From Candidatus Saccharimonadota bacterium (lineage in GTDB: Archaea > Nanohalarchaeota > Nanosalinia > Nanosalinales > Nanosalinaceae): 32,000 nucleotides of DNA. The translations under genes and the position numbers were made by a program. The DNA is taken from contig CP012986.1 of NCBI GenBank assembly GCA_001761425.1, positions 870,001-902,000 of the forward strand, written 5' to 3'. The notes under the pieces are model-generated. The model had not been told where the DNA came from. It ran no database searches and worked only from the letters and a program-made list of their open reading frames with translations. This document shows positions 2,580 to 26,163 of this stretch, piece after piece (the first letter of the stretch is position 1; each line of letters starts with the position of its first letter).

Positions 2580-3524
2580 CTAGATTTTGTCTACGTTGTC
2601 TTTGAGTGTTTCCATCTCTTTTGAGATTTTTCTGATTTCTTCTTTCATCTCTTTTTTCTGTTCTTTCAGTTTCTGAATATTGTTTTTCATGTCTTTTTTC
2701 TGTTCCTTGAGGGCTGTTTTTTTCTTCCTGAGCTTCTTCACTTTCTTCTTCAGTTTTTTGCCCTTGGTGTTGATCTTCTTTATTTTCTTTTTTTCATTGT
2801 TTTTTCTGTCTCTGAGCTGGCTGATCTCTTGTTGAAGGCCTTTTTTCTCTTCCCTGAGTTGTTTAACTTGTTTTTCTGCTTTCTCCTTTTCTTCCTTTGC
2901 TTCTACGGCCTGAGCGATTTTTTCATCCATCTTGTTGACTTTATCGAGTAACTGGCCGAAATCTTCGTCCGCTTCCAAATCTTCCAGATCATCAAGGCCT
3001 TCAGTTTCGCTGTTCGAATCTTCTGCATCTGTGTCGATTTCTTCTGTTTCATCTTCTATCTCCAGGTCTTCGTCATCGATTTCCAGATCTATATCTTCTT
3101 CCAGCTCTTCTAATTCATCGTCTTCGGATTCTGGTTCTCCGGTATCTTTATCTTCTGTTTCTTCACCCGGTTCACTGGTCTGTTCGTCTGCTTCAGTTTT
3201 TTGATCCTCGTTTTCCTCCTGTTTTTCTTCCTGTTTGTCTGTGTCGTTTGAGGCCTCTGTTTTTTCTTCGGAGTTTTCTTCAGAGGTTTCTGTTTTTTCT
3301 TCTGGTTGATCTGAGGCCTGTTTTTCTTGGTTGTTTTCGTTTTCAGGCGTTTCTTCTTTTTCTTTGTTTTTCTGTGTTTTTTCCTGTTGTTTGCTGTCCG
3401 TTTCGTCTTCTTGAGTGTTTTTGGCTTCTTCTACTTCTTGTTCTGTGTGTTCTTTCTTCTGGTGTAGCTTGAGGCCTTTTTTGCTGTTCATTTTTTTGTC
3501 GCATACCGGACAGGTGTAAGCCAT
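2580..3524 (-). CDS. C2H2 zinc-finger protein with poly-acidic middle and lysine-rich coiled-coil C-terminus
   Basis: 314-aa ORF with ATG start. N-terminal finger is YTCPVCDKKMNSKKGLKLHQKKEH (C-x2-C-x12-H-x4-H). About 190 aa of E/D-rich low complexity follow. The C-terminus is K-rich and heptad-like (KKLKKKVKKLRKKKTALKEQKK...). Lies 34 nt downstream of 3559-5151 on the same strand. Confidence 0.75.
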   Translation of the reverse strand: MAYTCPVCDKKMNSKKGLKLHQKKEHTEQEVEEAKNTQEDETDSKQQEKTQKNKEKEETPENENNQEKQASDQPEEKTETSEENSEEKTEASNDTDKQEEKQEENEDQKTEADEQTSEPGEETEDKDTGEPESEDDELEELEEDIDLEIDDEDLEIEDETEEIDTDAEDSNSETEGLDDLEDLEADEDFGQLLDKVNKMDEKIAQAVEAKEEKEKAEKQVKQLREEKKGLQQEISQLRDRKNNEKKKIKKINTKGKKLKKKVKKLRKKKTALKEQKKDMKNNIQKLKEQKKEMKEEIRKISKEMETLKDNVDKI

Positions 3525-3558
3525 ATGTTATGCTGTGGGTGTGGTGGTTGAAAAAAGT

Positions 3559-5151
3559 TTACTGGTTTTCAAACTGTTTTTTCAGCATTTGCAGAAGTTC
3601 TGGTTCTTCGGCCTGCATCTGGGTTCTGTGGGCTTTTAGCTTGTGTTTGATAAGTTTTTTGTGGAGTGCGAATTTTTCTCTGCAGTATGGGCATTCCTGT
3701 AGTTCTTCGGAGTGTACGTCTTCTTTGTGTTTTTTTAGGGCGTTGCTTGATCTGAATGTTTTTCTGCAGTTATCGCATCTGAAAAGCTCTACATCTTCGT
3801 GATTTATTTTTTTGCCTTTGAAAATCTGTAGTATTTTGGCTTTGAGGAACTGGAGGATGCTTTTCTGGCCTTCTTCAAGTTCCAGTACGAAAAGTGACTG
3901 TTCAAGATTTGAGATCCTGTCCTTTATACCTGCGGAGTTGTCTTCCATATCCTGGTATATTTTCTCTATCTTCTGTTTCTGAATCTGTTTTTTCTTTACT
4001 GCTTCCAGTGACTCTCTGTTTTCTTTCACCTTCTGATCTATATCGGCCATCTTTTCGTGGACTTGTATAAACCTGTCAATAGTCTTTTCGTCTATGGAGT
4101 CCTGTACTTCAGAGTTCTCAGCTATTTCCCTGATTTCTTCCACATCGTAGTTGGATTTCAGCTCTTCTATCTGGTCTTCAAGGCTTTCAAGGCCTTCAAT
4201 GTGTTCATAAACTGATTCAAGCTCTTGTTCTGTTACGAATCTGGTGTCCTCGTAGTCATCTATTTTTTCTATGGTGGCTTCTACTGCTGGAATCAGTCTC
4301 TGCATCTGTTTTTCTTTCTCCTCGACCGTGTTTTTGACTTCTTCAAAGTCCTGTTTTTCCGGCAGGTCGTTTACCTTGATCTGTACATCGTCGAAGAGTT
4401 TTCTTAGCTCGTGGAACCTGTCTGAGAGGCCTTCCTGTTGTTCTTCTATTCTTTCGACTTCTGAGACCTTTTCCTGCATTTCCAGGAACATGTCTTCTAC
4501 TTTGTTGGAGTAGGAATCCATTTTTTGTTCCTTTTCCTTGGCTTTCTGTAGATCCGACCTGATCTCTTTTTTCATGTCCTTTATCTGGTCGAGGCCTTCG
4601 AAGTCGTTGACTGTGGATCTTAGTTCGGATAATTCGTCTCTCAGGCCTTTTATTTCGTCTCTTGTGCTTTCTAACTGGCCTTCTATTTTTTCTATTTTTG
4701 CGTCTCTTTCCTCTATCTTTTTTTCTACTTCTCTTGGCTCTATTTTTTCTACGAGGTCCAGTGCTTTGTCTGCTTCCTGTTCTATTTTTCCTATTTTTTT
4801 CTCGTTTGATCGGGAGTTTTCTTTTGTGCTTCCGAGCCTGTCGGAGATTGTGTCCAGTCTTTCGTTGAAGGAGTTTACCCGTTGGCTCATGCTTTCTACC
4901 TGTGTTATGGCCTTCTGGTTGTTGCTCTTCATGTCCTGGACTTTTTTGCTCAGTTCCTGTGGTACTTCTGAGTCTGTCTGGACTTCTTCAGTTTCTTCTT
5001 CGGATCCGTCTATGGCCTCTCCCAGTGCGTCGTATATCTCTCCGTGCTCGTTTTTCTTGTGCATCTTGAGGTCTCTTACAGAATCGAAACCTTCCTCTCC
5101 ACAGTCTGCGCAGTTAAGTTGTTCTTTTTCGGACGGAGAGACTAGATCCAT
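3559..5151 (-). CDS. long coiled-coil protein capped by C2H2 zinc fingers at both ends
   Basis: 530-aa ORF with ATG start. N-terminal finger is NCADCGEEGFDSVRDLKMHKKNEH. About 430 aa of E/K/L/I heptad-rich sequence follow. Two C-terminal canonical fingers are FRCDNCRKTFRSSNALKKHKEDVH and QECPYCREKFALHKKLIKHKLKAH (C-x2-C-x3-F-x5-L-x2-H-x4-H). Confidence 0.8.
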   Translation of the reverse strand: MDLVSPSEKEQLNCADCGEEGFDSVRDLKMHKKNEHGEIYDALGEAIDGSEEETEEVQTDSEVPQELSKKVQDMKSNNQKAITQVESMSQRVNSFNERLDTISDRLGSTKENSRSNEKKIGKIEQEADKALDLVEKIEPREVEKKIEERDAKIEKIEGQLESTRDEIKGLRDELSELRSTVNDFEGLDQIKDMKKEIRSDLQKAKEKEQKMDSYSNKVEDMFLEMQEKVSEVERIEEQQEGLSDRFHELRKLFDDVQIKVNDLPEKQDFEEVKNTVEEKEKQMQRLIPAVEATIEKIDDYEDTRFVTEQELESVYEHIEGLESLEDQIEELKSNYDVEEIREIAENSEVQDSIDEKTIDRFIQVHEKMADIDQKVKENRESLEAVKKKQIQKQKIEKIYQDMEDNSAGIKDRISNLEQSLFVLELEEGQKSILQFLKAKILQIFKGKKINHEDVELFRCDNCRKTFRSSNALKKHKEDVHSEELQECPYCREKFALHKKLIKHKLKAHRTQMQAEEPELLQMLKKQFENQ

Positions 5152-5172
5152 GGTTATCTTTTCTCCTCGTTG

Positions 5173-5182
5173 AAATATAAGC
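5173..5182 (-). promoter_or_regulatory. TATA-box candidate for the 530-aa zinc-finger gene
   Basis: The minus strand reads GCTTATATTT, centred about 26 nt upstream of the ATG at 5151 and just after the giant gene stop (5186-5188). This could equally be a co-transcribed spacer (GGAG lies 13-16 nt upstream of the ATG). Confidence 0.3.
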
Positions 5183-5185
5183 TTG

Positions 5186-6313
5186 TCACATGTCTATTTC
5201 GTCTTCCAGCTCATTATTTAGCTCCTCTAGGTAGGTGTCTACGAGGTTGAAGCTCATCTTTCTAAGGTTCTTCTTGGCGAGGTTCAGACGTGATCTGTAG
5301 TCAAATACGTCCTCTCCCATGTCATCCAGTACATCTATCATGTCCTCTATCTTATCGATTCTTCTGTTGTAATCTTCGAATTTCTCGAGTTTGTCGTCAG
5401 ATATTTTTTCTGGACTGTGCTTTAGAGGCCTGAAGTCGACGAAGTAAGGCCTGCCGTGGTTGTAACTGGAGTTTTGTATCATTCCTGTTCCTGTGTTTGA
5501 TTTTGTGACTCCCTGTGAGATGTGGTCGCCGTATTTTCTCTGTATTCTGTCCAGGTCTCCTTCGTATTCTGTTCTCATCTGTACCTGTGTGCCGATGTTG
5601 GCTCTTACTTCTTCTGGGAAGTCGCCTATGACCTGGGAGATAAGTAGCATTCCTATGCCCCATTTACGGAATTCACGGGCTCCTCTTTCTAATTGTTTGA
5701 CTCCTTCTCCTGTTCCACCGAATTTTTCCAGTACTCTGTGTGCCTCGTCGTAGACTATGAGAGTTTGAAGTTGATCTGTTTCCTCAGGGTTGTATTCGAA
5801 TATCTGTTTGATTGTGTCCGAAAGGTATTTTTCAAGTTCTTCGTTGTCCAGCTTATGCATTGAGAAAACATGTATGCTGCCCTCGTCTTCCCCGCTTCTA
5901 AGTACATCTGTGATGTCTACTGTATCCTGGTCTGCTTCTACAGCTCTGATGTTCCCGGTGTAGTCGCGGGTGTCGGATTCGCTCATGCCGAAGTCTCCGA
6001 AGAAGGCCTCCATCTGCTGGTCCTCGTTTTCCTCGAGGTATCCCGACCATTGGCCTGTTGGATCTAGCACTATGACATTTACTCCTTTTTCCAGTGCCTC
6101 TTCTGCGATAACCTCTGCTGCTACTGTTTTTCCTGCTCCTGTGGCTCCTGCTGCTAGACAGTGTGTTTTCAGGTCTTCAAGGTTGAGGAATGCTCTCTTG
6201 CCGATTTCCGAAAGCTGTCCGACGAAGGCTGTTCTTCCTGTTTCATCGGGTAGTTCTGCGTTGTCGACCTGTTCGTCAAATCTTTTCTTTTTCTCCTCTA
6301 TTTTCTTCTTGCG
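5186..6313 (-). other. cytoplasmic HerA/FtsK-superfamily (DUF87/COG0433-like) ATPase domain of the giant protein
   Basis: Walker A GATGAGKT at 6125-6148. The DPTGQWSGY segment resembles the HerA DPHGEY motif. Walker B LIVYDEAH at 5738-5761. FRKWGIGMLLISQ resembles the EGRK.G...ISQ motif of HerA-like ATPases. Confidence 0.75.
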
Positions 6314-9300
6314 GTAGTAGTAGTATCCTCCTGCAGAAGATAGTATTATGAGGATAAAGATTGAGAGCAGCCAGTATCTATTCTGGATTCCTACGGTTTG
6401 GCGGTCCAGTAAAGGTTTCTGTAAATCTACCTGTCCGACAGCAGTTGCTGATCTGTTACCTGGGATATTTGAGTATTCTACTGAGGCCCTGGCTTCATAT
6501 GTCCCTAGTTCAGCGTCTTCAGGGATATTCATGCTGATTATTCTATCGATGGTGGTCTGAACAGCAAATGTCTGGGTTTTTTTGGCTATGACTTCATTGT
6601 CTGTTATGTCGACTATTTCTATTTTTGTTTCTGCGTCTACAGCTCTGGAGAATCCTTGGTTGCTGAAGGATATTTTGATTCTGGCCTGTTCTCCGGGCTG
6701 GAAGCTTTCTACCGTAGGTTCTATAGTAACATCAAGTAAGCGGTTTTCAGCACTTACTATATCTATGTTTATAGGCACAGATCTTTCGTTATTAGGTCCT
6801 TTTATCTGTATGAAGCCGCTGAACTTCTTCAATCTGGAATTGTTTGAAGCATTTACTGAGATTCTTACAGTTCTGAACTCTCCTGGTTCCATGGTAATGT
6901 TATTTTCCAGCGATACCAGCTCAGCTATATTATCTGTTTTCTCCAGTTGTATCTCTACGGTTTCATCTCTCGGATTCTGCAGCGAAATTGCAGTGGATTT
7001 GCGCTCACCAGGCTGTAAGGAAACTGTTACTTCGCTATTGCCTATTGCTAGGTCGTCTTGTGATTCGTTAAGTTGATCAGCTATCTCGTCCAGCGAGTCA
7101 TCGTTAGATGAATCTGTATTACCTCCGAAAGGAGGTTCAAAGTTTCCTCCAGTACCTGAATCAGTGTTTGATCCTTCTGTATTCGAGGCGATATCCTCCA
7201 GAAGTGAATCAAGATCAGAAAGATCTGATAGTTCTGAGAGATCCCCTATTTCTCCTGTCAGGTTGACATTCAGGTTATTATCTGTAGATGAGGATTCATC
7301 CTCGACAAGTATGTATGAGGAAAAGCCTGAGATGTTGTTGACATAGAGGTTCTCCGAGTTCACATCTATGAATGTCTGATCGCCTGCCACTGCTTCATAA
7401 CTTGACTGACAGGATTCAGCCTTTGAAAGATTGTATTGCTCGCATTTCAGGACCTGTAGGTTACCTTGGTAATCTATGCTGTTTTTCAGTTCTGAGTAAT
7501 CGAAGGATAGGCTTCCTGATATATTTTCGAATGAATCTGAGATAACACCAAATCCTGAGAGATACTCCTGTTCGACATTAACTAGGTCGTCACTGATTTC
7601 TGCATCGAACTTTGGAGGACTGCTATTAATCATCTCGCCTGTGACAGAATCTACATTAGCAACCTTGTCATCATCAACCACGATCTCTGCTCTACTGTAG
7701 TTACCGCTCTTAATAGTCTGGTTGTAGCTATTGTTGACAGGCTCAACCGAATCAGATACTTCTCCTCCTTCATCTACAAGTCTGATCTCCGTCTGGTTCG
7801 AGGGTTCTCCAGCTTCTCCCTCTACATTTAGAGGCCTGAAAACACGGAAGTATTCGCTTCCTGATTGTCCTGTGTTGTCCTCTACATCGGTTGATTCAAA
7901 GCTCACATTGTAAAGGCCTTCTTCCTGGGTCTGTGCGAACTCTCCTTTCCAGGTTCTGCTTTCCTGTTCAGATAACGGTGTGGTATCATTTGGTGTCAGC
8001 TCAAGTTGTACGCTGTTTTGCCCAGGTGTGATTATGTTTGCAGTTACCTGTTCTCCTGTTATCTGGCTTTCGTCCTTGAGCGTTACTTCAATGCTGGAGT
8101 TCTCATTTTCCGTGACCGGTTCAGCTGTCAGATTTACGAATTCTGGAGGGGTTACATCTGCGTAGGATACTTCTGTTTTTTCCTCTATGCTTGAACGGAA
8201 TTCTGTGGAAGTGGATGAGTATATGAAGGTATGTTTTATTCCGTCCTTTATGTCTGGGCTTTGGAACTCTGTTTCCCACATTTTTGTCGATGGATTGTAG
8301 TTTTCTGGGATGTCCAGCGTTTTTCCTGATGCTTCGAGCTTTATGTCGACTTCATTTCCTTGTCCAATGGTCTGGTCGGATCTTGTAAGGTTGAACCGGG
8401 CTTTTATGGTGTCTCCTGCGACCAGATCTTGTTTCCGGTTCTGGTAAGTGTTGTTGAATCTTATGTCCTGTACGAACAGTGTCATGTTTGCGATGTTGTG
8501 CTGATCTAGCTCCGTACTTGATGATGGATCTATGCTGAAGTTGTAGGGTTCGGTTCCCTTTGGATCTATCTGATCTGTATCCGATCTTACCTGGATATTC
8601 TTTGTCTCTCCTGGTTCTATGTTCTTCTCGAATGGGTCTGTGGAGTCCTCTCCCAGATAGAACTCGAAGTCTCTCGGATTGTCGATGGCAAGTGGTTCGA
8701 GAGGTACATTTCCTGTATTTTTGACAGAGAAGGTTGTGATATTCAGGTTGCCCTGATTGGCTGGTATGGTCTGGCTGTCGTTCTCTGGTTCGATTTCTAC
8801 AGATCTCTGTTCTGGTACAACTACTGTGGTGCCGTTGAGCTGTTTATTCGTTCTCTCTGAGATTGCCTTGATCTGGATCTCTTCTGTGGTTGGTTGAAGG
8901 TATTCTGCCGCCGACATTTCGTAATTTACTGTTTTTGATTCTCCGCTGTCCAGGTCGAATCCGGTCTGACTGAAGCCTGTTATCCCAAGTTCGGAGTCAC
9001 ATCCTATACATTCAAACTGGATGTCCTCTAGCCTTGTGTTTCCAGCGGATTTGACTGTTAGGCTGCCGTTCTCTGTGGAGCCGTGAGGTATATTTACAGT
9101 CTGTGCTCCGGTTACATTCATCTTGATGTTGGCTGTGGCCGATGCAGTTAAAGTATTCTCTGTACCTGATACACTGCTTCCATCCGGGTTGTTCCAGGCA
9201 GGAGTGATACTGGCGAAGTAATCCGGGATAAACTCAGTGTTTGCAGCTGCAACAATCTCGGCATCAAAGGTCTTGTTCTCACGGGCCGATACATCTCCTA

Positions 9301-12300
9301 TATTTATGAAAGTATCACGATCCGAAAAGTTGATTTTATCTACATCTGCAGCACGAGGATCTGTCTCATCTATTGAAAGAGTTAATGATACATCTTCAAC
9401 ATCAACACGGCCTCCCATAACATTCCCTGTCAATGTTTTGGTATCTCCCGAGTTTGCTGTAACATCATCCAGTTCTACACTGTCCTGTTCCATATCGAGC
9501 TGTATATTAGCTCTATCTCTTACAGTAAAGTTGTATTCATCGCTTGTCCTTCTGTTGCCGTTTTCATCTACTGCCTCAAATCTTACTCCGTAGGTATGGT
9601 CGTTTGATGGAAGATCTCTTCCAAGTTTGTCAGGCTTGATCTCGTCCGAGAAGTCTCCTTGTGGCGATTGAATATTGAAGTCATCGTTTCCTACCCTGAT
9701 CTCCTTCTCTACATTATCTAGATACTTTGTTATAGTAATGTTCATCTGCTTGAGGCCTTCTGTGTTTGTCGTTCCTGCGTTGTCACTTACTGTTCCGTTT
9801 ATCGTGATATTGTTGCCGTTACCTGTTATTTCGGGAATTTCTATATTGCTGAAGGTAGGGGCAGGGTCTTTAACCGTTCCTTCAACAGGTATGTTAATTT
9901 GCTGGGGGCTACATTCAGATGGGGCTGTACATTCTATGGAGATGTTAGCTGAGTAATTACTGGGGATGTCTGTTGCGTACTCTGTAGTATAACCTACGGT
10001 GGCTGGAGGAGAACTTATCTGGTATTCATAGTCTGAGAAGGAGTCGATCGTGGATGAGTAAGATTCAGATCCGTGATCTGGGACTTTGGATTCGTTACTG
10101 AAAAACAGGTTATCATCATCACCCTGTGAAATCTGGCTTTCTACATCCCAGGAAAGTTCACGGTTACCGGTGTTTTCCAGTGTCAGTTCAAATAGGTCTT
10201 CTCTTGAATCAAGTTCAAGTGTCCCTAGTTTTACAGGGTTCGAGGCATTGATCTCGTCTGGTATTTGCACCTCTTCATCCAGAGCCCTCAGATCAGGATC
10301 CCATTTGGGCGAGTCCTTTACTTCGACGGTGATGTTTGCTGAGTTTGTCTCGTCCGCATCGTCAGAGTAAGACTTCAAAAGCGTGGAATAATTGCCTGGA
10401 GGAGTACCTTCTGGTATCTGACCGTTCATCTCGAAGATGCTTACGGTATCTCCGGTACCTCTGTCGTATCCGCCATCTTTAGCCCTGAAGAATCCATCAA
10501 TCCATGATTTGTTAAATCTGTCGCTGCTAACAGTCCATCCAATCCCTGTAGCAGTTCCTGTACCCTCGTTCTCTATCGTGAGGTTTGCGGCTCCGTCTGG
10601 CGATATGAAGTTTCCTGAAAAACCATCTTCATATGTCAGCGAAAGATTCTGCTGGAACAGAGGAAGCTTGCTGAGTGTCACAGAAAGTGTCACAGGATCA
10701 GAACTTCTCTTATTGAAGCCTCCCGAGGTATTAAATTCTGTGGAAATATTCAAGTTATAATCTGCCTGTGTAGAGGCCTCTGAAACATCTATTACGGCAT
10801 CGACCTCTCTTGTTTCCCCGGCGCTGATGTTGTAGTACTGTTTTACTGTCCTCCAGTCTCTTCCCCCTCTGTCTTCCAGTATCTTATCGGTTTCGTTGGC
10901 TTTCGGAAGCTCTTCTCCAAACACTTTCAGGCCTCTGACTTCCGTGTTTCCTGTGTTGGTGACATTTATCGGAACGGTTTTGTTCAATCCGTTGTTAAGG
11001 GTGACTCCCTGTACTGGAATATCATTTTGAGGGACTGAAACCTCGATATCTGTGGAGTCCTCTACCTCTACCACAGTTGTGTTTCTTGCTCTGATACCGT
11101 CTTCATCTGTGGAGTTTATGTTTACTTCGAAGCTGCCCGTGTTTTCAGGGGCGTTGAGACTTGTACTGTAGAATCCGGATTCGTCAGTTGAAACTAGATC
11201 GGTTTCACCTGTCTCTTCCAGTTTGACCTCTACAGATGCATTTACTCTCTCATCAGATAGGCTCTGTCTTACAGTGCCGTTGAGTTCAAACTCTCTTCCG
11301 AGGCCTACTGTTTGATCGCTCTTGATTGCTGATACTGAGCCGTTGGTGACCTGTAGTTTTAGTTCCGGAGAGTTAAGCTCTCTTAGGCCTTGAGAATCTT
11401 TTGCGTTTAATTCGAAACTGTATTCTCCTTCAGCATCGTAGATCTCGGAGATGTTTTCCTGTAATTTCCAGACTTCCTGTTTGTTCAGGTCTCTTTCATA
11501 GGTGTTTCCTTCCGGTGTCTGGATGTAGGCCCACATTCTTTCTATAGGATTTCCGTGTGATTCCAGAGTGGTGTTTATCTGGAACCTGTCCTCTGGATCA
11601 ACTGTTTTATCGCCGTTAGCGAGGTCTGTGATGTTGGAGGATGAGAATTTCAGGCTGGTAGTGACTGAGGTTTCGTTCAGGCCTTGAATTCCGTTGTTGT
11701 TGGTTACAAAGTATTCTATGTTTGATTCTCCGGAGAAGTCTGGTGCTGTGAAGGTTGTCTCAAAGGTTCCGTTTTCATCGACGGGTACTTCAGGTTCCGT
11801 GTTTTCTACGAGTACTTCTGTGTAGTTTATCTTTGCGTTGAATTTGCCGTTTTCTGTCTGGAAACTTGCTTTATTGGTTCCTGTACTGAGATTATCTAGC
11901 TTTTTGGTCTGGCTGTTTCCAGGAGTTATTCTTCCGGAGTAGTTGGCTTCCTGTTCGCCGTCTCCGTCTATATCGAGGCCTGGATCTTCAGTTGCGTATC
12001 TTCTTACCAGCCTCAGTTTTTCAATTATCGGTGCATCGGTGACATTGCTTTCCATCTGTACATTGAGGCGGAAGTCTTGGCTGTCCAGCATTGAGCCTGT
12101 GATTTCATATCTTGTCTGATCTTCGTCAAGCGGTATAGGATCTGAGTCTCCGCCTTCCGAGCTGATAACTTTTACCTCTGCACTCTGGTTCATGGTATCG
12201 GTTTCTGCCTCCAGGACGAGAGATTCTGTTCTTACCGTTTCAGAAAATGATTTGAGGCCTGTGGTCAGTTCCTGCTGCTCGTTTTTATCTCCTGCCCGGT

Positions 12301-15133
12301 TTCTCAGATTGAAGGGGTTAGCGGTCCTGCCGTAGATCCTTAGCTCGTCTATATCTCCTCTGAATCCGTTTCCTCCTATATCTGGTCTGTAGCCTATGTA
12401 GGCGTTGCCTGTGGTCAGATCTGGATCAGCTCCCAGAGTTATCTGATTGAAGTCTCCTCCCTGTCCCGTCGAAATCTCAAGGCTTCCATCCACAGAGTCG
12501 TACACCAATGTCACCATGTTCCATTTTCCGACATCTATGTTTCCGCTGTCGGTGCTAACATTACTGGTTGTACCGGAGATGTTGGTTTCAGCATAGACAT
12601 TTCCTCCTTCAACGATCTGGACAGTCAAACTATCTTCAACTGCTAAGATAGTGTAGGGATCTCCGCTACCTGACCCGAGGTGACCTGAGGAAGAAGGCAG
12701 AGAATGAGGCCTGACCCATGCATTGATACTGAAGCTTCCTGTAGATGAAAAGATAGGTGAGGAGGATTTGAAGCCGTCAGTTCCGGAAAATCCTATGGAA
12801 TCGGTGTTTAATATTCCTTCCTGTCCTAGCTGCGGAGAACCAACCGTTTGAAGACCTTGATCCCCGGCAGAGTCCGAGAGCGGTCCTGAAGAATCGTCCA
12901 TTGCATAATAATGATTCAGATTCGAGCTGTTTTCTTTAAGATCGGAATTTGGGTATCCTAGTGAAAGTGTTCTGTTAGTGACATCGCTGTCTCTTTTGTT
13001 CGAGTGATCTGTGCCTGTCCTGCTCTGGAATGCGTCCCAGTCAGTAGCATTGCTCCAGATTGATTGCTCGTCAACTCCTGAGTACTGTCCATAGAAAGTT
13101 ACTTCTGCGTTTTGAGGAGTCTGCGACCCGTTTACAGGTATATTTGCCTGGTCGCCGGTTCCGATGTTTTCCAGATTTATGCTTTCATTTATCCTGTTTT
13201 TTCCTTTCACGACATCCTCGTAGAGCAGGCTGATGTTTCCTGTATAGTCCTGGATAGATCTTCCTCCGTTGCCGTCACCGGTTATTATACTTACATTACC
13301 TGTAACATTGAATGTATCTCCTGGCTCGACTTTTTCCCTGTGACCGGGCTCTACCTCTATGTCTCTCACTTTGAAGCTGGATTCCTCTAGTTCTGTGTCC
13401 TCAAAGTTCGATGCATAGTCACTGGCTCCGTAATCCGCTTTGTAAAGGCCGTACTGTCCCTCCAAGAATTCCTGGACAGGCCTTGAACTACTCCATTTGA
13501 TCTTCGGATCCTTCCTAGCCTTTAGATCGATACGGGAGAGTACAGGTGATCTGGAGGCATTTGATGTCTGGAAACTCAGGTTCAGTCTGAAAGTATCTGA
13601 ATTGTTTTCAAGGCCTGAAACAGACCTGATCTGCGACCCCTGACTTAGATTTATTTCTTCGGACAACTCTTCAAACATGCCGTCCGAGTCCGGGTCGCTC
13701 TCGACCCTGACCTGTATTTCCTCTTGGTTAAGGCTTCCTTCAAAGTTCAGGAGCTTCAGTATATCTCTGATTTCTTTCTCTGTATTCAGTGTATCGGTCT
13801 GTATACTTCCCTGTCTTTTACTTAGCCTTTCAATCCTCTCCTCGGGTAATGAATGGTTGTAAATCCTCAGGTTGTCCATCTTTCCGTAGAAGGCCCTGCC
13901 TATGAATGTACCGGAGTCTCCTATCACCGGGTTTCTCTGGAACTGTGGTAAACCAAAGCTGTAAGTGCTTGATCCTGATCTTTCCCCGTCAACATAAATC
14001 GCCAGGTGGGTGCCGTTGTACATGCCTGTCAGGTGATGCCATTCACCGTCGTCTACAGATCTTGATCCACTCAGAATGACTCCATTCCCGCCGTTCTGGA
14101 CTTCCAAGACCGGCACTCCCTCTTCTACTCTTAATTCAGGATTAATGTTATCTCCGCCATTGGAAGCTCTGGAGTATACTGCGCCGTTCTCTGATGTCTT
14201 GATCCATGTTGAGACTGTGAAATTGGAATTGAGGTTGAGTGCCGAGGAGTCCTCTATTTCAAGTGAGCCTCCGCCTAGTTCAGTTCCGTTGGTGGAGAAA
14301 ACCCCTCCTGTGTTCCTGTTTACTGAGCCTGAGACTGTCGCATTATTCCCTTGACCTGATAAATCTCTTACAGGGCCGGATTCCCGTTCCATCGGCATAT
14401 CAAGCACTAGATCATCGGATGGGTTTTCCTGAGGCCCTATCCTCAGTTTCTCTGCGGTGATTCCTCTCTGAAGATCAGCATGAGTTAGATGTGATGTTTT
14501 TCCAGAGTCCCAGTCGGCTTCCTTCTCTAGTTTATCACCCAATACATTCTCAGCACTGAGATTTAATCTTTTCCTGGAACCGTCAGGAAGCGTAATATTT
14601 GCATAGACATTTTTCACAAAGTTCAGGCTCTTCCTTGTCTCCACTGAAAAGTCTACATCTTGTCCAGGATCCACAAAACTGGTTTTCTCCAGTCCTGTGT
14701 CCTGATAACGCCTTTTCTTGGGAGAAACAGAAGAGCTGTTATCAACTCTTATTCTTGTCTTCAGGTTCTCTGTTCTCAACCTCGAGATACCCTCATCGTT
14801 GACTGAGAAGATTCTTACCTCTCTATCCCCGGCGTTCAGAGGCGAGGTAAAGTTTCCGATCACAAAGCCTCCCGAAGAATTAGTTACCCCGCTCCTGGCC
14901 TCTAACTGTCCGTCAGAGCCCCTGTACCTGATTTCTATTCTTTCATCTGTATAGTTTACCTTCTTCACTCCTCCTGAACCATCCTGAATGTACTTCTTCA
15001 CTGAGCCCTGAACTGTAAAGTTCTCGTCCGGATCAACTCTTTTCGGATATGACTGGCTGAGGTTATATCTAAGGCCTCTTATCGATATATTAAAGGCCTC
15101 TGTGCTTTCCTTTCCGTTAAGGGTTGTATTCAC
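5186..15133 (-). CDS. giant surface (adhesin-like) protein with C-terminal TM helix and cytoplasmic HerA/DUF87-type ATPase; probably the 3' part of a larger gene
   Basis: 3315-aa uninterrupted ORF (GTG at 15133; frame open upstream to 15652). The extracellular part has repeated beta-sandwich-like units, two LamG/ConA-like lectin modules, CARDB-like V.NTGN units and very dense N-x-S/T sequons. A single TM helix (YWLLSIFILIILSSAGGYYYY) is followed by RKKKIEEKKKR. The cytoplasmic part has P-loop ATPase motifs GATGAGKT, VLDPTGQWSGY, LIVYDEAH and FRKWGIGMLLISQ. Confidence 0.9.
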   Translation of the reverse strand: MNTTLNGKESTEAFNISIRGLRYNLSQSYPKRVDPDENFTVQGSVKKYIQDGSGGVKKVNYTDERIEIRYRGSDGQLEARSGVTNSSGGFVIGNFTSPLNAGDREVRIFSVNDEGISRLRTENLKTRIRVDNSSSVSPKKRRYQDTGLEKTSFVDPGQDVDFSVETRKSLNFVKNVYANITLPDGSRKRLNLSAENVLGDKLEKEADWDSGKTSHLTHADLQRGITAEKLRIGPQENPSDDLVLDMPMERESGPVRDLSGQGNNATVSGSVNRNTGGVFSTNGTELGGGSLEIEDSSALNLNSNFTVSTWIKTSENGAVYSRASNGGDNINPELRVEEGVPVLEVQNGGNGVILSGSRSVDDGEWHHLTGMYNGTHLAIYVDGERSGSSTYSFGLPQFQRNPVIGDSGTFIGRAFYGKMDNLRIYNHSLPEERIERLSKRQGSIQTDTLNTEKEIRDILKLLNFEGSLNQEEIQVRVESDPDSDGMFEELSEEINLSQGSQIRSVSGLENNSDTFRLNLSFQTSNASRSPVLSRIDLKARKDPKIKWSSSRPVQEFLEGQYGLYKADYGASDYASNFEDTELEESSFKVRDIEVEPGHREKVEPGDTFNVTGNVSIITGDGNGGRSIQDYTGNISLLYEDVVKGKNRINESINLENIGTGDQANIPVNGSQTPQNAEVTFYGQYSGVDEQSIWSNATDWDAFQSRTGTDHSNKRDSDVTNRTLSLGYPNSDLKENSSNLNHYYAMDDSSGPLSDSAGDQGLQTVGSPQLGQEGILNTDSIGFSGTDGFKSSSPIFSSTGSFSINAWVRPHSLPSSSGHLGSGSGDPYTILAVEDSLTVQIVEGGNVYAETNISGTTSNVSTDSGNIDVGKWNMVTLVYDSVDGSLEISTGQGGDFNQITLGADPDLTTGNAYIGYRPDIGGNGFRGDIDELRIYGRTANPFNLRNRAGDKNEQQELTTGLKSFSETVRTESLVLEAETDTMNQSAEVKVISSEGGDSDPIPLDEDQTRYEITGSMLDSQDFRLNVQMESNVTDAPIIEKLRLVRRYATEDPGLDIDGDGEQEANYSGRITPGNSQTKKLDNLSTGTNKASFQTENGKFNAKINYTEVLVENTEPEVPVDENGTFETTFTAPDFSGESNIEYFVTNNNGIQGLNETSVTTSLKFSSSNITDLANGDKTVDPEDRFQINTTLESHGNPIERMWAYIQTPEGNTYERDLNKQEVWKLQENISEIYDAEGEYSFELNAKDSQGLRELNSPELKLQVTNGSVSAIKSDQTVGLGREFELNGTVRQSLSDERVNASVEVKLEETGETDLVSTDESGFYSTSLNAPENTGSFEVNINSTDEDGIRARNTTVVEVEDSTDIEVSVPQNDIPVQGVTLNNGLNKTVPINVTNTGNTEVRGLKVFGEELPKANETDKILEDRGGRDWRTVKQYYNISAGETREVDAVIDVSEASTQADYNLNISTEFNTSGGFNKRSSDPVTLSVTLSKLPLFQQNLSLTYEDGFSGNFISPDGAANLTIENEGTGTATGIGWTVSSDRFNKSWIDGFFRAKDGGYDRGTGDTVSIFEMNGQIPEGTPPGNYSTLLKSYSDDADETNSANITVEVKDSPKWDPDLRALDEEVQIPDEINASNPVKLGTLELDSREDLFELTLENTGNRELSWDVESQISQGDDDNLFFSNESKVPDHGSESYSSTIDSFSDYEYQISSPPATVGYTTEYATDIPSNYSANISIECTAPSECSPQQINIPVEGTVKDPAPTFSNIEIPEITGNGNNITINGTVSDNAGTTNTEGLKQMNITITKYLDNVEKEIRVGNDDFNIQSPQGDFSDEIKPDKLGRDLPSNDHTYGVRFEAVDENGNRRTSDEYNFTVRDRANIQLDMEQDSVELDDVTANSGDTKTLTGNVMGGRVDVEDVSLTLSIDETDPRAADVDKINFSDRDTFINIGDVSARENKTFDAEIVAAANTEFIPDYFASITPAWNNPDGSSVSGTENTLTASATANIKMNVTGAQTVNIPHGSTENGSLTVKSAGNTRLEDIQFECIGCDSELGITGFSQTGFDLDSGESKTVNYEMSAAEYLQPTTEEIQIKAISERTNKQLNGTTVVVPEQRSVEIEPENDSQTIPANQGNLNITTFSVKNTGNVPLEPLAIDNPRDFEFYLGEDSTDPFEKNIEPGETKNIQVRSDTDQIDPKGTEPYNFSIDPSSSTELDQHNIANMTLFVQDIRFNNTYQNRKQDLVAGDTIKARFNLTRSDQTIGQGNEVDIKLEASGKTLDIPENYNPSTKMWETEFQSPDIKDGIKHTFIYSSTSTEFRSSIEEKTEVSYADVTPPEFVNLTAEPVTENENSSIEVTLKDESQITGEQVTANIITPGQNSVQLELTPNDTTPLSEQESRTWKGEFAQTQEEGLYNVSFESTDVEDNTGQSGSEYFRVFRPLNVEGEAGEPSNQTEIRLVDEGGEVSDSVEPVNNSYNQTIKSGNYSRAEIVVDDDKVANVDSVTGEMINSSPPKFDAEISDDLVNVEQEYLSGFGVISDSFENISGSLSFDYSELKNSIDYQGNLQVLKCEQYNLSKAESCQSSYEAVAGDQTFIDVNSENLYVNNISGFSSYILVEDESSSTDNNLNVNLTGEIGDLSELSDLSDLDSLLEDIASNTEGSNTDSGTGGNFEPPFGGNTDSSNDDSLDEIADQLNESQDDLAIGNSEVTVSLQPGERKSTAISLQNPRDETVEIQLEKTDNIAELVSLENNITMEPGEFRTVRISVNASNNSRLKKFSGFIQIKGPNNERSVPINIDIVSAENRLLDVTIEPTVESFQPGEQARIKISFSNQGFSRAVDAETKIEIVDITDNEVIAKKTQTFAVQTTIDRIISMNIPEDAELGTYEARASVEYSNIPGNRSATAVGQVDLQKPLLDRQTVGIQNRYWLLSIFILIILSSAGGYYYYRKKKIEEKKKRFDEQVDNAELPDETGRTAFVGQLSEIGKRAFLNLEDLKTHCLAAGATGAGKTVAAEVIAEEALEKGVNVIVLDPTGQWSGYLEENEDQQMEAFFGDFGMSESDTRDYTGNIRAVEADQDTVDITDVLRSGEDEGSIHVFSMHKLDNEELEKYLSDTIKQIFEYNPEETDQLQTLIVYDEAHRVLEKFGGTGEGVKQLERGAREFRKWGIGMLLISQVIGDFPEEVRANIGTQVQMRTEYEGDLDRIQRKYGDHISQGVTKSNTGTGMIQNSSYNHGRPYFVDFRPLKHSPEKISDDKLEKFEDYNRRIDKIEDMIDVLDDMGEDVFDYRSRLNLAKKNLRKMSFNLVDTYLEELNNELEDEIDM
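6314..6376 (-). other. single transmembrane helix separating the extracellular and cytoplasmic parts of the giant protein
   Basis: Codons for YWLLSIFILIILSSAGGYYYY, followed on the C-terminal side by RKKKIEEKKKR (positive-inside rule). Confidence 0.8.
12311..12915 (-). other. LamG/concanavalin-A-like lectin module 2 of the giant protein
   Basis: FSINAWVRP...GKWNMVTLVYDSVDGSLEI...NAYIGYRP...FRGDIDELRIYGRTANPF. The W/hydrophobic core and the D-E-L-R-I-Y ending are typical of Laminin_G_3-type domains. Confidence 0.65.
13838..14416 (-). other. LamG/concanavalin-A-like lectin module 1 of the giant protein
   Basis: NFTVSTWIKTS...DDGEWHHLTGMYNGTHLAIYVDGERS...FIGRAFYGKMDNLRIYNHSLPEERI, the same pattern as module 2. 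Confidence 0.65.
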
Positions 15134-15655
15134 TCTCAGGGTCTGGTTGCCTAGACTGTCTGTTGACTGTATCTTCGGAACCTCAAGAGTCAGGTTAAAG
15201 TATCCGTTACCGGATTCAGGTGTGACAGGTGAGTTTTCAGCTTCAGTTCCGTTGAAAAATACATTTACAGGGTTGTATGTCGAACCGTTCAGAGTTATCT
15301 TCTGTCCAGGGTTGACTATGGAGTCGTTTACTCCTGTCCAGCCCAGGGATCTGTTGTTTATATTGTATATATCATTGTCTTGCGGTGAGTCATCTATCCC
15401 TTCTTCGTTCTGAGTATTTAAGGTAAACCGCTTCAGGCCTACTGTAGGGTTTATCTGCTGGAAGAATGAGTATCCTCCTGAACTGTTAGTTACGACCTGG
15501 TTGGTATTCAGGTTCTGGCTTTGATTGAAGTAATTGAGCTCGATGCTCTGGTTATCATAGGGTAGACGGTTTGATCCTCTTGATCCGTCGTCCTCTTTAT
15601 GAGATAGCTGGAGTTCGAGAAAGATAGATCTTCGCCGGGTTTGAGAAGGAAATCA
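15134..15655 (-). other. in-frame upstream extension of the giant ORF and frame-change junction with the 766-aa ORF
   Basis: The 5186-15133 frame stays open for 173 codons upstream of its GTG, to a stop at 15653-15655. It encodes another copy of the repeat unit found in 15508-17808. The two frames overlap in 15511-15652, and the best junction is near 15614-15625. Confidence 0.7.
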
Positions 15656-17808
15656 GGTTGATTGTCTATTTCAATCTCTCTCAGGGAGATGTTCCACGAT
15701 TCCTGTCTGATCTGGCCGTTCAACCTTGTCATTGCTTTCAAGGTATAGTTCCCGAGATTTTGTTCCTCCTCTATCTGAAGAGTTTTTACAGAAGTCTCGA
15801 AGTAGCCATCAGTTCCTGGAGTCACATTCAGCCTGGACTCAAACCCTCCTGTCCTGTTCTCGAGGTATACCTCAACGCGGTTGTGAGCTGTTCCGTTCAG
15901 GCCTATCTTCTGCCCAGGGTCCAGGATCGTGTCATTGATATCCATCAGAGATATATTTTTTCTTCCGAGGCCTTCTATGCCGTTGGCGTTTTCAGCTTCT
16001 GTCCGGTAATATTTTCTGCCTTTTGTGAAGGGTACATCAGCTGATAGAGAGGATCCTCCGGTACTGTTGGTAGTGAATGTTTGAGAGTATATTTCGTTTC
16101 CTGAACTGAGTACTGTCCAGTTTGCTTCTTCACCGGCATAATCTGTGGTCTCTGTTGCACCAGAGCCGTCTTCTTTTACAAGTTCAAGTATTGAATCAGC
16201 CTCCAGAATCTGTGAAGGTTTCAGTATGTAATCAGAGAACTGTTGAACCTGTATATTTCTGTGTGATATCTGAAATGTCTCTGTAATTGTGTTACCTGAG
16301 ATTGTTGATGAAACCTCCATAGTGTAGTTCCCAAGATCTTCTTTTTCATTTATGTCAAGGCTGTTGACAGTTATGTTGTAAAAGCCGTCTGATGACCTTG
16401 GTTCTGTTTCACCTACCGCAGTTCCGTTAATCTTTACAGTTACGGTCGATGATGCTGTGCCGTTCACCTTGATAGGTTCTTCAGTGTTGACTATACTTTG
16501 ATTGATGAATGCTGAGAACGCTATCTGGCTCTCGACGGTTCCCTTGGTTGATTCCTCTTCTTTTACCTGGTTAGAGTTCGCGTTTCCACCCCATCCATTG
16601 TTCGGTAAGTCGGATGATCCAGGTCCTGGATCCGCAGTTACGGAGAGGCTTTCATCTTTTATGGAGTATTCGTAGTAGACATGTCCTCCACCTCCACCTC
16701 CGCCGAATGCGTCCTGTCCGCGGTCTATCTTCTCCATGTAGGTTCCTCCATCAGCCCTGACTTCTCCGTCGCCGAAGATTCCTCCTGAAGAAATCCATAT
16801 CGATCCTCCAGCTCCTCCACCCGGAGAGTACCCGGAAGAACCGAAGGAACCTCCTCCATCAAGTCCATTGGATAACACATTACCTGTGATGTTCACTTTG
16901 TTGCTTGCTACAAGCTTGATCGTTCCTCCACCGGATCCCATTCTGATATCATTCGGATTATTCTTCCTGTACTCGTCATTTGTCTCAATCCAGGCATCAG
17001 AATCTAGAGGATCCTGATCCGGGTCATCAAAATTCCCGTTGCCGTCCGTAGCATTCAGTATCTTCTGCCTCAGCTCACCGCCGTAATTGCCCGCTGAACC
17101 GTGACCTTCTTTATTGTCTACCCGAGAGAGTAGATATGTATCTATCTGTGCTCCTCCACCTGAACCGAAAGTACTGGGGTCCTCTGAAGTACCATAAGTA
17201 TTCGAGTTATCAGATCCGTACCCACCACCGTGACCGTAGTACTCACCGTTTTTGTACGAACCTCCTTTTCCACCGTGACCTCCGCCTCCTGCACCGGTGT
17301 TACTGTTCCCGTCACCGGAGACTCCTCCTCCAGGCCCACCTCCGAAACAGAAACCATCTGATGAAGAACCAAAGTTACAACTTCCCGAATTGGAGCTGGC
17401 TGACTGCCATCCAAGGCCTGAAGCATCTAGCACACCGCCTTCTTCGACTCTTATATTATACGCAGAGATGTTGATGTTAGCATGTACCGCACCGCCAGAT
17501 TTCACGATGAAATCTGCATCGTCCAGGGATACAGAGGCTCTTGGAGAATTACCTTCTTTCTTGTGATCGGTATAAAGCCTTCCTCCGGACTTAACAATAA
17601 TATCAGAGTCTCCTGTTGTCTCTTCGCCTGTAATATCCTGAGAACTTGTAATATTGCAGCTATCTCCTCCTGTCAGACTTCCAGAATCACAGGAAATCGC
17701 AGAAACAGGGCTTGCAAATACCACAAAAACCAGGATAGTCGCTAAGATAAATTTAGGTCCAGAACCGGTATAACTATGGTAGTCTATCGTCAAAAAGGAC
17801 ATCCTCAA
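15508..17808 (-). CDS. N-terminal part of the giant surface protein (signal/anchor helix, glycine-rich module, beta-sandwich repeats)
   Basis: 766-aa ORF (TTG at 17808, ATG at 17802). Hydrophobic N-terminus FILATILVFVVFASPVSA. Glycine-rich region. Two repeat units (IKVNGTASSTVTVKINGTAVGE...DGFYNITV...LGNYTMEV and IGLNGTAHNRVEVYLEN...DGYFETSV...LGNYTLKA) continue in the other frame toward 15133. Confidence 0.8.
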   Translation of the reverse strand: MRMSFLTIDYHSYTGSGPKFILATILVFVVFASPVSAISCDSGSLTGGDSCNITSSQDITGEETTGDSDIIVKSGGRLYTDHKKEGNSPRASVSLDDADFIVKSGGAVHANINISAYNIRVEEGGVLDASGLGWQSASSNSGSCNFGSSSDGFCFGGGPGGGVSGDGNSNTGAGGGGHGGKGGSYKNGEYYGHGGGYGSDNSNTYGTSEDPSTFGSGGGAQIDTYLLSRVDNKEGHGSAGNYGGELRQKILNATDGNGNFDDPDQDPLDSDAWIETNDEYRKNNPNDIRMGSGGGTIKLVASNKVNITGNVLSNGLDGGGSFGSSGYSPGGGAGGSIWISSGGIFGDGEVRADGGTYMEKIDRGQDAFGGGGGGGHVYYEYSIKDESLSVTADPGPGSSDLPNNGWGGNANSNQVKEEESTKGTVESQIAFSAFINQSIVNTEEPIKVNGTASSTVTVKINGTAVGETEPRSSDGFYNITVNSLDINEKEDLGNYTMEVSSTISGNTITETFQISHRNIQVQQFSDYILKPSQILEADSILELVKEDGSGATETTDYAGEEANWTVLSSGNEIYSQTFTTNSTGGSSLSADVPFTKGRKYYRTEAENANGIEGLGRKNISLMDINDTILDPGQKIGLNGTAHNRVEVYLENRTGGFESRLNVTPGTDGYFETSVKTLQIEEEQNLGNYTLKAMTRLNGQIRQESWNISLREIEIDNQPDFLLKPGEDLSFSNSSYLIKRTTDQEDQTVYPMITRASSSITSIKART
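16579..17601 (-). other. glycine-rich, probably beta-solenoid-like module
   Basis: Residues about 70-410 of the 766-aa ORF. Contains repeated IVKSGG(R/A) strands and tracts such as GGGPGGGVSGDGNSNTGAGGGGHGGKGGS, GSGGGTIKLVASNKVNITGNVLSNGLDGGGSFG, GGGAGGSIWISSGGIFGDGEVRADGG and FGGGGGGGH. Confidence 0.5.
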
Positions 17809-21074: not shown

Positions 21075-21088
21075 TTCTTCTTCGACCT

Positions 21089-25637: not shown

Positions 25638-25671
25638 ATCTTTGTTAAAGAATCTAAAGTTTTTTAATAAT

Positions 25672-25704
25672 AAGAGTTAAGCTAGAAGTATAATCTTAAT
25701 ACTT
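25672..25704. promoter_or_regulatory. imperfect inverted repeat in the divergent promoter region (candidate NikR operator)
   Basis: AAGAGTTAAG (25672-25681) - N13 - CTTAATACTT (25695-25704), with 8 of 10 positions complementary. Lies in the 68-nt A/T-rich spacer between the 25637 (-) and 25706 (+) starts. No match to known NikR consensus sequences was established. Confidence 0.2.
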
Positions 25705-25705
25705 A

Positions 25706-26137: not shown

Positions 26138-26163
26138 TAAATTTCATATCACTTTGTAACAAT

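Follow-up and report, generated by a model that had tools for sequence, protein, structure and literature searches.

Z1 is a gene on the minus strand of a 32,000-nucleotide (nt) stretch of nanohaloarchaeal DNA (contig CP012986.1, positions 870,001 to 902,000), which is referred to, at its full length, as the window. It encodes a protein of 530 amino acids (aa) with C2H2 zinc fingers at both ends and a long helical region between them. By alignment, aa 65 to 290 of this protein constitute a distinct conserved family lacking prior description, and not a generic coiled coil. It is this helical core, and not the fingers, that co-occurs with the HerA/VirB4-like ATPase domain of a giant surface protein: a core gene is found at most one gene downstream of an orthologous ATPase in 17 of 18 lineages, most of these without fingers. 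Z1 can tentatively be regarded as a cytoplasmic coiled-coil adaptor or partner of this membrane-anchored motor, a reading that seems quite possible rather than secure. The C2H2 fingers and the giant protein are of known kinds, while the core family and its linkage to the ATPase are new.

The open reading frame (ORF) of Z1 begins with ATG, 34 nt after the stop of the giant gene and on the same strand, as a first-pass annotation of the window had it; that strand is the minus strand. The protein is built up as follows, with coordinates referring to the window and AF2 denoting AlphaFold2 models:

3559..5151, minus strand: Z1, comprising an N-terminal finger, an acidic linker, the conserved helical core, a second helical region, two C-terminal fingers and a C-terminal tail
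5044..5118, minus strand: N-terminal C2H2 finger, aa 12-36 (regular expression, ligand conservation, AF2)
4960..5043, minus strand: acidic low-complexity linker, aa 37-64, net charge -11 (charge; AF2)
4282..4959, minus strand: conserved helical core, aa 65-290 (22-sequence alignment, profile search, AF2)
3820..4281, minus strand: second, variable helical region, aa 291-444 (AF2 helices, orthologue alignment)
3712..3783, minus strand: C2H2 finger 2, aa 457-480, FRCDNCRKTFRSSNALKKHKEDVH (Pfam, ligand conservation, PDB sequence matches)
3628..3699, minus strand: C2H2 finger 3, aa 485-508, ECPYCREKFALHKKLIKHKLKAH, after the 6-residue acidic linker SEELQE (pattern, ligand conservation)
3562..3627, minus strand: C-terminal tail, aa 509-530, with the conserved motif EEPxLLxxLxxQF (orthologue alignment; AF2)

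As a whole, Z1 is acidic (isoelectric point, pI, 4.8), and inspection of its sequence gave no transmembrane (TM) segment and no signal peptide. In the AF2 model of the full-length protein (predicted local distance difference test score, pLDDT, 62; predicted template modelling score, pTM, 0.22) there are three beta-beta-alpha fingers and helices over approximately aa 65 to 444; several loops and the conserved residues Pro139, Pro264 and Pro288 break up these helices. The region between the fingers is thereby predicted to be a segmented coiled-coil-type region and not one continuous rod of 430 residues. Of the heptad-rich rod of about that length in the first-pass annotation, the helical character and a periodicity of 3.4-3.5 residues have stood; the helical residues number approximately 380, are segmented, and include the family of aa 65-290. 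The acidic linker has a pLDDT below 50 and no predicted secondary structure, and is poorly conserved among orthologues. Helices are predicted at 270-301, 308-333, 355-426 and 429-444 in and around the second helical region, which contains many indels among orthologues and shows a periodicity that is weaker than that of the core, but significant. The tail is predicted as a helix (509-529); its motif is kept in the orthologues L006, L007 and L008 and in the small relative P0112, all introduced below, and is missing from the L001/L023 clade.

An exhaustive profile search provided the evidence for the core family, and the figures given here are taken from its best 150 matches. Most of these are eukaryotic poly-finger proteins that align at the finger columns only. 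Approximately 21 proteins among the 150 match the Z1 core in a single stretch, with E values of 1e-19 to 1e-25, and fingers are present in none of the 21 core-only proteins retrieved. In an alignment of 22 sequences (A2), the core spans about 220 residues (Z1 aa 65-290), with Gly107 and Pro139 invariant, several further positions near-invariant, and the motifs NERxDTxSDRLGST, KALDLVExxEP, NKVEDMFLEM and FHELRKxFDD. Across the family, the hydrophobic columns follow a period of 3.4-3.5 residues that was matched by 0 of 500 permutations. An AF2 model of the core alone (Z1 residues 67-300, from a 26-sequence alignment) reached a pLDDT of 81 and a pTM of 0.30; in Z1 numbering it predicts helices at 68-133 and 139-261, which meet in a kink at the invariant Pro, and then a third helix. 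The arrangement of the helices relative to each other is left undefined by a pTM of only 0.30. The members share a constant N-terminal core and have highly variable C-terminal extensions, so that their lengths range from 204 to 1140 aa. These extensions are mostly further coiled coil, and Pfam scans gave no enzymatic or toxin domains in them.

No Pfam, NCBIfam or PDB family was recovered for the core: scans of the 22 members returned only coiled-coil noise (DUF1664, NPV_P10, BLOC1_2), a profile search of PDB sequences only generic coiled coils, including a weak match to the sigma-1 structure 6GAO, and a Foldseek search with the core model no match at all. Two candidate relationships were rejected. 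Homology of the core to PspA, Vipp1 and ESCRT-III had been considered on account of the MGLFGKKK-type N termini of fingerless members and of faint PspA_IM30 matches; hhalign of A2 against an alignment of PspA and Vipp1 gave a probability of 0.6% and an E value of 0.09 (the PspA sequence used was compared with PDB 4WHE and with Vipp1 entries), and Pfam PspA_IM30, whose cut-off is 33.9 bits, reached no more than 16-18 in two orthologues and is not among the recurrent family-wide matches. Kinship with Rad50/SMC proteins was rejected as well, with NCBIfam scores of 20-37 bits against cut-offs of 300-1087 that cover coiled coil only, and with no P-loop motifs. Many fingerless members begin with a short hydrophobic-basic motif (MGLFGKKK, MGIFKRKKG), and some (P0057, P0058, P0070, P0094, P0140) end in a small conserved C-terminal domain (...GY[ST]xxxIxxxL).

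The gene linkage involves the giant gene, whose relevant parts are the following:

5186..15133, minus strand: giant ORF, 3315 aa as listed, GTG start (Pfam, sequence inspection, literature)
6314..6376, minus strand: the giant protein's one TM helix, aa 2920-2940, YWLLSIFILIILSSAGGYYYY, with RKKK after it (read from sequence)
5189..6313, minus strand: cytoplasmic P-loop ATPase domain and C-terminal helical tail (Walker A GATGAGKT, Walker B LIVYDEAH)
15508..17808, minus strand: 766-aa ORF, MG2-like with signal peptide, read as the N-terminal part of the giant gene, cut off by a 2-nt indel
5152..5185, minus strand: 34-nt spacer between the giant gene and Z1, containing a TATA-like, A/T-rich box (cttatattt) approximately 23-31 nt before the Z1 ATG (sequence)

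In Pfam, the giant ORF scores 137 bits for Laminin_G_3 (two domains), 50.7 for HerA_C and 43.6 for DUF87, the latter two passing. Its ectodomain carries the two Laminin_G_3 domains together with Ig/PKD/MG2-like domains. The ATPase domain is placed in the cytoplasm by the positive-inside rule, as the TM helix is followed by RKKK. Its best NCBIfam match is CedD, with 54 bits against a cut-off of 600; because this score is far below the cut-off, the domain is assigned to the HerA/FtsK/VirB4/CedB/CedD superfamily and not to the CedD family. CedD is the DNA-import ATPase of the Sulfolobales, and the superfamily includes DNA translocases. The listed ORF is incomplete. Its frame is open for 173 codons upstream of the GTG, where it overlaps the 766-aa ORF, and a contig with 97% identity (L031) reads through uninterrupted, the window carrying a 2-nt insertion near 15,595. 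The two ORFs are, by this comparison, one giant gene of approximately 4,200 aa split by the insertion.

Giant surface proteins of this type have been described in the Nanohaloarchaeota under the name "SPEARE", an invasion tool with nuclease activity being one view of them (Hamm et al. 2019, PMC6642349). A later re-analysis sees in them a VirB4/TraG-like ATPase that is anchored by a TM helix and ends in a coiled coil, and proposes that they are secretion "straws" for "yet unknown effectors" (PMC10266531). According to the latter paper, the gene downstream of the giant in SVXNc and BNXNv encodes a second VirB4/TraG-like ATPase and not a coiled-coil protein. The main texts searched mention no zinc fingers and no coiled-coil protein beside the giant gene.

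With the ATPase domain of the window as a tblastn query, each locus that extends far enough upstream proved to have this domain directly before the core gene or one small gene away from it, bar that of Ca. Nanohaloarchaeum antarcticus. All seven fingered lineages are linked (the window, the L001 group, L023, L006, L007/L020, L008 and L021/L022), and so are 10 of the 11 fingerless ones (L009, L010, the P0004 contig, L011, L014, L015, L017, L032, L033 and L034). The ATPase is 75-78% identical to that of the window in fingered loci and 37-57% in fingerless loci. The pairing of core and ATPase is old, since the linked loci span 33-49% GC, the fingerless ones 33-48%, and their ATPases are only 37-57% identical. 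The first-pass annotation had regarded a functional link between Z1 and the HerA-like motor as plausible from its position alone; the gene linkage has turned out to be far stronger than that, and the linked part is the core, not the fingers. In two loci, one small gene is present between the ATPase and the core gene (L011 7358-7843, L032 6297-6977). It carries the motif GKDxFIxxLLLRNV..., which resembles the conserved helical tail fused to the ATPase of the window, and this tail seems to be a separable module. The idea of a recurrent separate zinc-binding gene beside fingerless homologues was rejected: a HypA-like gene in L011/L012 is the sole case and is most likely fortuitous.

Profile scores, conserved ligands and the predicted fold show the fingers of Z1 to be genuine classical C2H2 modules. 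The ligands of the N-terminal finger are C14-x2-C17-x13-H31-x4-H36, exactly the pattern that had been noted before; those of finger 2 are C459-x2-C462-x12-H475-x4-H480 and those of finger 3 C487-x2-C490-x12-H503-x4-H508. Fingers 2 and 3, whose sequences are as first quoted, also possess the F-x5-L hydrophobic core of the classical consensus. Each of the six cysteines of Z1 is a finger ligand. Among 20,000 residue shuffles of Z1, at least one C2H2 pattern arose in 0.04% and three patterns in none, and a six-frame scan of the whole window detected 5 patterns against 0.14 expected. All 12 ligands are invariant in a 5-sequence alignment (window, L001, L006, L007, L008) at 42-54% identity, and the recognition helix of finger 3 (FALHKxL[IL][KR]H) is kept in four orthologues and in P0112, which argues for selection on the fingers.

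With respect to profile scores, the whole of Z1 exceeds the Pfam cut-offs, with 30.4 bits for zf-C2H2_4 (gathering cut-off 27) and 26.5 bits for zf-C2H2 (cut-off 25.2). Scored individually, finger 2 is the only finger of the window's Z1 that passes, with 25.7 bits for zf-C2H2, 26.3 for zf-C2H2_4 and 25.4 for zf-C2H2_jaz; finger 3 alone obtains 18-19 bits and the N-terminal finger 16.7 bits, with a weak Pfam ZN142 match. The low score of the latter is attributed to its x13 spacing, which costs bits. This spacing occurs only in the window's Z1, all four full-length orthologues having x12, and the N-terminal finger of orthologues obtains 22-26 bits when scored. In the orthologues L006, L008 and L023, Pfam counts three finger stretches, with 37-41 bits. 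AF2 predicts two short strands and a helix for each finger (pLDDT 63-77, approximately 75 for the N-terminal one). In the PDB, eukaryotic tandem fingers come closest in both sequence and fold: finger 2 matches ZBTB20, ZFAT and a consensus finger at E values of about 2e-5, and a Foldseek search with the full-length model returned only tandem fingers, none at E <= 0.001. The finger pair has a net charge of +3 to +7 and a pI of about 9-9.5 in four of five orthologues (window, L006, L007, L008), and the N-terminal finger of Z1 is roughly neutral. Finger 2 passes the JAZ model and the finger of the neighbouring protein Z2 the zf-met model, both of which Pfam associates with binding of RNA or double-stranded RNA. 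These model matches, the basic finger pair, the conserved helix of finger 3 and the DNA pumps within the ATPase superfamily speak for a nucleic acid as ligand, while the neutral N-terminal finger is a reason for caution. The rarity of classical C2H2 fingers in prokaryotes, to which the first-pass annotation had drawn attention, holds in so far as they are uncommon; they are not unprecedented in archaea and their viruses (PMC3541406), and P0112 is named "C2H2-type zinc finger protein" by NCBI.

Orthologues were obtained mostly from scans of genome and metagenome contigs, as word-index searches of protein databases with Z1, Z3 and P0112 gave very few relatives. Full-length orthologues, 42-54% identical, are P0001/L001 (with the related clade L023), L006 (a Candidatus Nanohalobium metagenome-assembled genome, MAG), L007/L020 (uncultured archaeon), L008 (Nanohaloarchaea archaeon SW_4_43_9) and L021/L022. 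The lineage of the locus is Nanohaloarchaeota (DPANN), and the neighbours in L001 (TBP, PolD, GatABC) are archaeal. The locus of the window contains two further finger proteins:

2580..3524, minus strand: Z2, 314 aa, starting 34 nt after Z1, with N-terminal C2H2 finger, acidic linker and coiled coil
18398..19021, minus strand: Z3, 207 aa, with N-terminal C2H2 finger MECHFCGQEFDSERGLHIHQSKSH, linker and basic coiled coil (six-frame scan, translation)

In Z2, the acidic linker (approximately 160 aa) has a net charge of -64 and the lysine-rich coiled coil at the C terminus one of +22, and the finger passes Pfam zf-met with 24.6 bits against 21.2. The order giant gene, Z1, Z2 was found in all seven fingered lineages, so that the neighbourhood is conserved in related genomes; wherever the sequence of a fingered locus continues downstream, Z2 comes after Z1, and it also follows the mini-Z1 of L018. 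Neither of the outcomes by which the first-pass annotation would have been refuted, fingers that fail the profile searches or lose their ligands in orthologues and a lack of synteny with the giant gene, was obtained. In L001 and L018, gene callers placed the start of Z2 too late, cutting off the finger. Z3 is encoded just upstream of the giant gene and has the same architecture as Z2, to which it shows a collinear weak similarity; its finger is most like the N-terminal finger of Z1, and its single known relative is 96% identical. A motif made up of non-ligand positions, FDSERGLxxH, recurs in the N-terminal fingers of Z1, Z3 and P0112. None of Z1, Z2 and Z3 has a signal peptide or a TM segment, and the ATPase follows the TM helix and RKKK, so all four are placed in the cytoplasm; this topology agrees with PMC10266531.

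Because most lineages of the core family lack fingers, these are a nanohaloarchaeal, clade-specific addition to the core, as are Z2 and Z3. A small relative illustrates this. P0112 is a "mini-Z1" of 145 aa from a nanohaloarchaeal MAG (L018 8001-8438; L019 5355-5792) that retains the N-terminal finger, the C-terminal finger pair and the tail, and has lost the core; a Z2 homologue is encoded next to it, and no giant gene is present beside it in the L018 and L019 loci. The occurrence of fingers and Z2 without core or giant gene points to a modular organization, in which the core would serve the ATPase of the giant protein, while the fingers and Z2 would recognize something independent of the giant.

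In the mechanism that we infer for Z1 as a partner of the ATPase, the ancestral module would be the helical core of aa 65-290, two long helices joined at the invariant Pro, which would oligomerize as a coiled coil and dock either on the ATPase itself or on the helical tail at its C terminus. The partner of one nanohaloarchaeal subclade would have gained an N-terminal finger, a C-terminal finger pair and a short conserved tail, with Z2 and Z3 as accessory finger and charged coiled-coil proteins of the same locus. The fingers could be imagined as heads that bind their ligand, a nucleic acid or a protein, at a distance of tens of nanometres from the motor, and either bring it to the translocase or take it over from there. 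P0112 would then be as expected, since the core would serve the ATPase and the fingers something else. A more far-reaching version, which we consider rather improbable, is that the giant protein, its motor, the core partner and the fingers together form a DPANN-specific apparatus for the intercellular translocation of nucleic acid, in which Z1 passes DNA or RNA on to the motor, or accepts it from there, where symbiont and host are in contact. Such an apparatus would be an archaeal single-polypeptide analogue of conjugation or of a Ced-type coupling system.

Several observations weigh against the adaptor reading. Contact between Z1 and the ATPase is a conjecture. One lineage is unlinked, the only such case found: on contig NAR1_11 of Ca. 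Nanohaloarchaeum antarcticus (L028 5872-7017), a fingerless core homologue of 381 aa follows a Cdc48-like double-AAA ATPase and a RadB/KaiC-like gene, and no SPEARE-type ATPase is present in this locus. The divergence of Z1 is much faster than that of the ATPase (55-66% identity in the core, 75-78% in the ATPase), a pattern that would also fit a substrate. Co-transcription is doubtful as well, since each gene seems to be preceded by a TATA-like box, approximately 24-31 nt before its ATG, and the stop codon of Z1 is followed by a T-run. A comparable A/T box is found at the same distance before the Z1 ATG in six orthologous loci (L001, L006, L007, L008, L021, L023) and may act as a promoter; CTTTTTTCAA is located just after the Z1 stop, approximately 24-33 nt before the Z2 ATG (3525-3558), in the window and in four of six orthologous loci. 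The pattern points to leaderless transcripts of the individual genes and away from a single operon. With regard to the fingers, the linker between fingers 2 and 3 has 6 residues, is mostly acidic and is not of the TGEKP type (SEELQE here; SDELEK, SEEPQR, GQKLEI and EEEELV in orthologues), the canonical 7-residue linker of Zif268/TFIIIA-type arrays being absent from Z1 and its orthologues, and the finger pair has a net charge of -8 in the L001 clade. For both of these reasons, caution is due: nucleic-acid binding, that of DNA included, and bridging by Z1 are conjectural. Finally, in P0006, a metagenomic fragment of 129 aa that is 98% identical to Z1 aa 402-530, the first Cys of finger 2 (Cys459) is replaced by Arg, which reflects either a sequencing error or a strain in which this finger is disabled.

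The faster divergence of Z1 leads to a different interpretation, in which Z1 and its fingerless relatives are not partners of the motor but its cognate substrates, effectors exported into the host cell by the VirB4/FtsK-like ATPase of the giant protein, with the core as targeting domain, the C-terminal part as payload and the fingers acting on host nucleic acid. The constant N-terminal core with its variable C-terminal extensions is in favour of this, a layout that recalls the helical substrates of the FtsK-like ATPases of type VII secretion (WXG100, LXG), and so are the short motifs conserved at the two extremities, M-[DG]-L-[VLF] at the N-terminal and EEPxLLxxL at the C-terminal one. It would also provide the effectors that the secretion-straw proposal calls for (PMC10266531). 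However, a single copy per ATPase gene and invariant structural residues across distant lineages are more suggestive of a subunit than of a payload, and the extensions consist mostly of coiled coil without enzymatic or toxin domains. Zinc-stabilized fingers on a coiled coil of approximately 50 nm would be an awkward cargo, and the core-less P0112 keeps its fingers at a locus without the giant gene. Export is judged unlikely, though it is the rival that deserves the most weight.

Two other interpretations start from the fingers. If these act without nucleic acid, as protein-protein modules through which Z1, Z2 and Z3 form a scaffold in the cytoplasm, at the foot of the giant protein, the motif FDSERGLxxH common to the N-terminal fingers of Z1, Z3 and P0112 would reflect a common ligand, and the lysine-rich coiled coils of Z2 and Z3 would face the acidic helices of Z1 and the tail of the giant. 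Protein-protein roles of paired fingers are well known, as in Ikaros, where paired C-terminal C2H2 fingers function in dimerization. The non-TGEKP linker fits as well, and some eukaryotic factors are dimerized by paired C-terminal C2H2 fingers (PMC12774644). Against such a scaffold, Z3 is restricted to very close relatives and the charge of the fingers is not conserved; we consider it a less probable explanation than export. The opposite view, that Z1, Z2 and Z3 are DNA-binding regulators or nucleoid-associated proteins controlling the giant-gene locus, with coiled coils that only dimerize, can point to the fact that classical C2H2 fingers most often bind DNA, as a C2H2 protein of an archaeal virus does (PMC3541406), to three finger proteins at one locus, and to a finger pair and Z2/Z3 coiled coils that are basic amid an acidic proteome. 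On the other hand, the part linked to the ATPase is the fingerless core, which in 11 lineages has no recognizable DNA-binding domain, and approximately 380 helical residues far exceed what dimerization needs. Together with the non-canonical linker and the acidic fingers of the L001 clade, this makes a regulatory role the least probable of these explanations. The adaptor reading of Z1 is retained as the preferred one, in tentative form.

SPEARE-type giants are the most conspicuous genomic feature of the Nanohaloarchaeota and occur in other DPANN as well; cultivated carriers of a giant protein are Ca. Nanohalococcus occultus SVXNc and Ca. Nanohaloarchaeum antarcticus, and Ca. Nanohalobium constans LC1Nh is reported to lack such proteins. 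Their working mode is disputed (PMC6642349, PMC10266531). A cytoplasmic family beside the motor domain in 17 of 18 lineages gives this debate a concrete, testable second component. The three fingers in Z1 and the two further finger proteins at the locus suggest a specific ligand, be it nucleic acid or protein, from which the cargo of the machine could be learned. Furthermore, Z1 would be a rare case of classical C2H2 fingers recruited to a non-transcriptional architecture in archaea.

Elsewhere in the window, the genes at 19767-26547 encode a pyridoxal phosphate (PLP) enzyme and a rhodanese, and Orn/Arg decarboxylase-like, CbiA/MinD-like, CobW-like and ParB_N-like proteins and NikR; their order is kept in a contig with 93% identity (L030). 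The CobW/HypB/UreG-type GTPase gene (24062-25637, minus strand) is split into ORFs of 363 and 163 aa by a 2-nt deletion near 24,606, and in L030 it is a single gene of 527 aa. The two 2-nt indels of the window, in this gene and in the giant gene, may be assembly errors or real pseudogenization.

In comparison with known systems, the giant protein of the window resembles the SPEARE proteins in its laminin-G/Ig-like ectodomain, TM helix near the C terminus, cytoplasmic P-loop ATPase and terminal coiled coil, and its listed length of 3315 aa is that given for "SPEARE 3" of Ca. Nanopetramus SG9 (PMC6642349). The fingers of Z1 share with classical C2H2 fingers of the Kruppel/TFIIIA type (PF00096, PF13894, including AFV1p06) the spacing C-x2-C-x12-H-x4-H, the F...L core, the predicted beta-beta-alpha fold and Pfam scores above cut-offs. 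They differ in being only three, split between the ends of a long helical protein, in the 6-residue acidic linker instead of TGEKP, in the x13 spacing of the window's N-terminal finger and in a charge that varies among orthologues.

Long coiled coils combined with zinc-binding Cys motifs, and an association with HerA in archaeal operons, are reminiscent of the Rad50/SMC zinc-hook proteins, and there are weak NCBIfam matches to Rad50, SMC and ASRP. In contrast to these, Z1 is devoid of ABC ATPase heads, and its zinc sites are terminal C2H2 fingers and not a CxxC hook in the middle of the coil. A preprint on a haloarchaeal zinc-ribbon protein of cell division was judged not relevant to Z1. A further comparison is with the coiled-coil proteins (CCPs) of type-IV-pilus-like loci in DPANN (Hamm et al. 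2023 preprint, 10.1101/2023.02.24.529834), which have long predicted coiled coils, are conserved across cluster-2 DPANN and are suspected of a role in host interaction; the preprint cites the sigma-1 structure 6GAO, which is also among the weak coiled-coil matches of the Z1 profile. What defines the CCPs is the presence of CpaF, TadC or pilin genes next to them, and no such gene occurs in the window or in any locus examined. The loci of the Z1 family have a HerA/VirB4-like ATPase instead.

The partners of HerA/FtsK/VirB4-type motors provide a further parallel. No sequence or fold similarity of Z1 to NurA, relaxases or Ced components was found; the likeness is one of arrangement. NurA with HerA, the coupling proteins and relaxosome adaptors of conjugation, and the CedB/CedD systems all have, as Z1 has, a small cytoplasmic protein encoded beside a hexameric translocating ATPase, with which it presumably works, and an accessory that binds nucleic acid would suit a DNA translocase.

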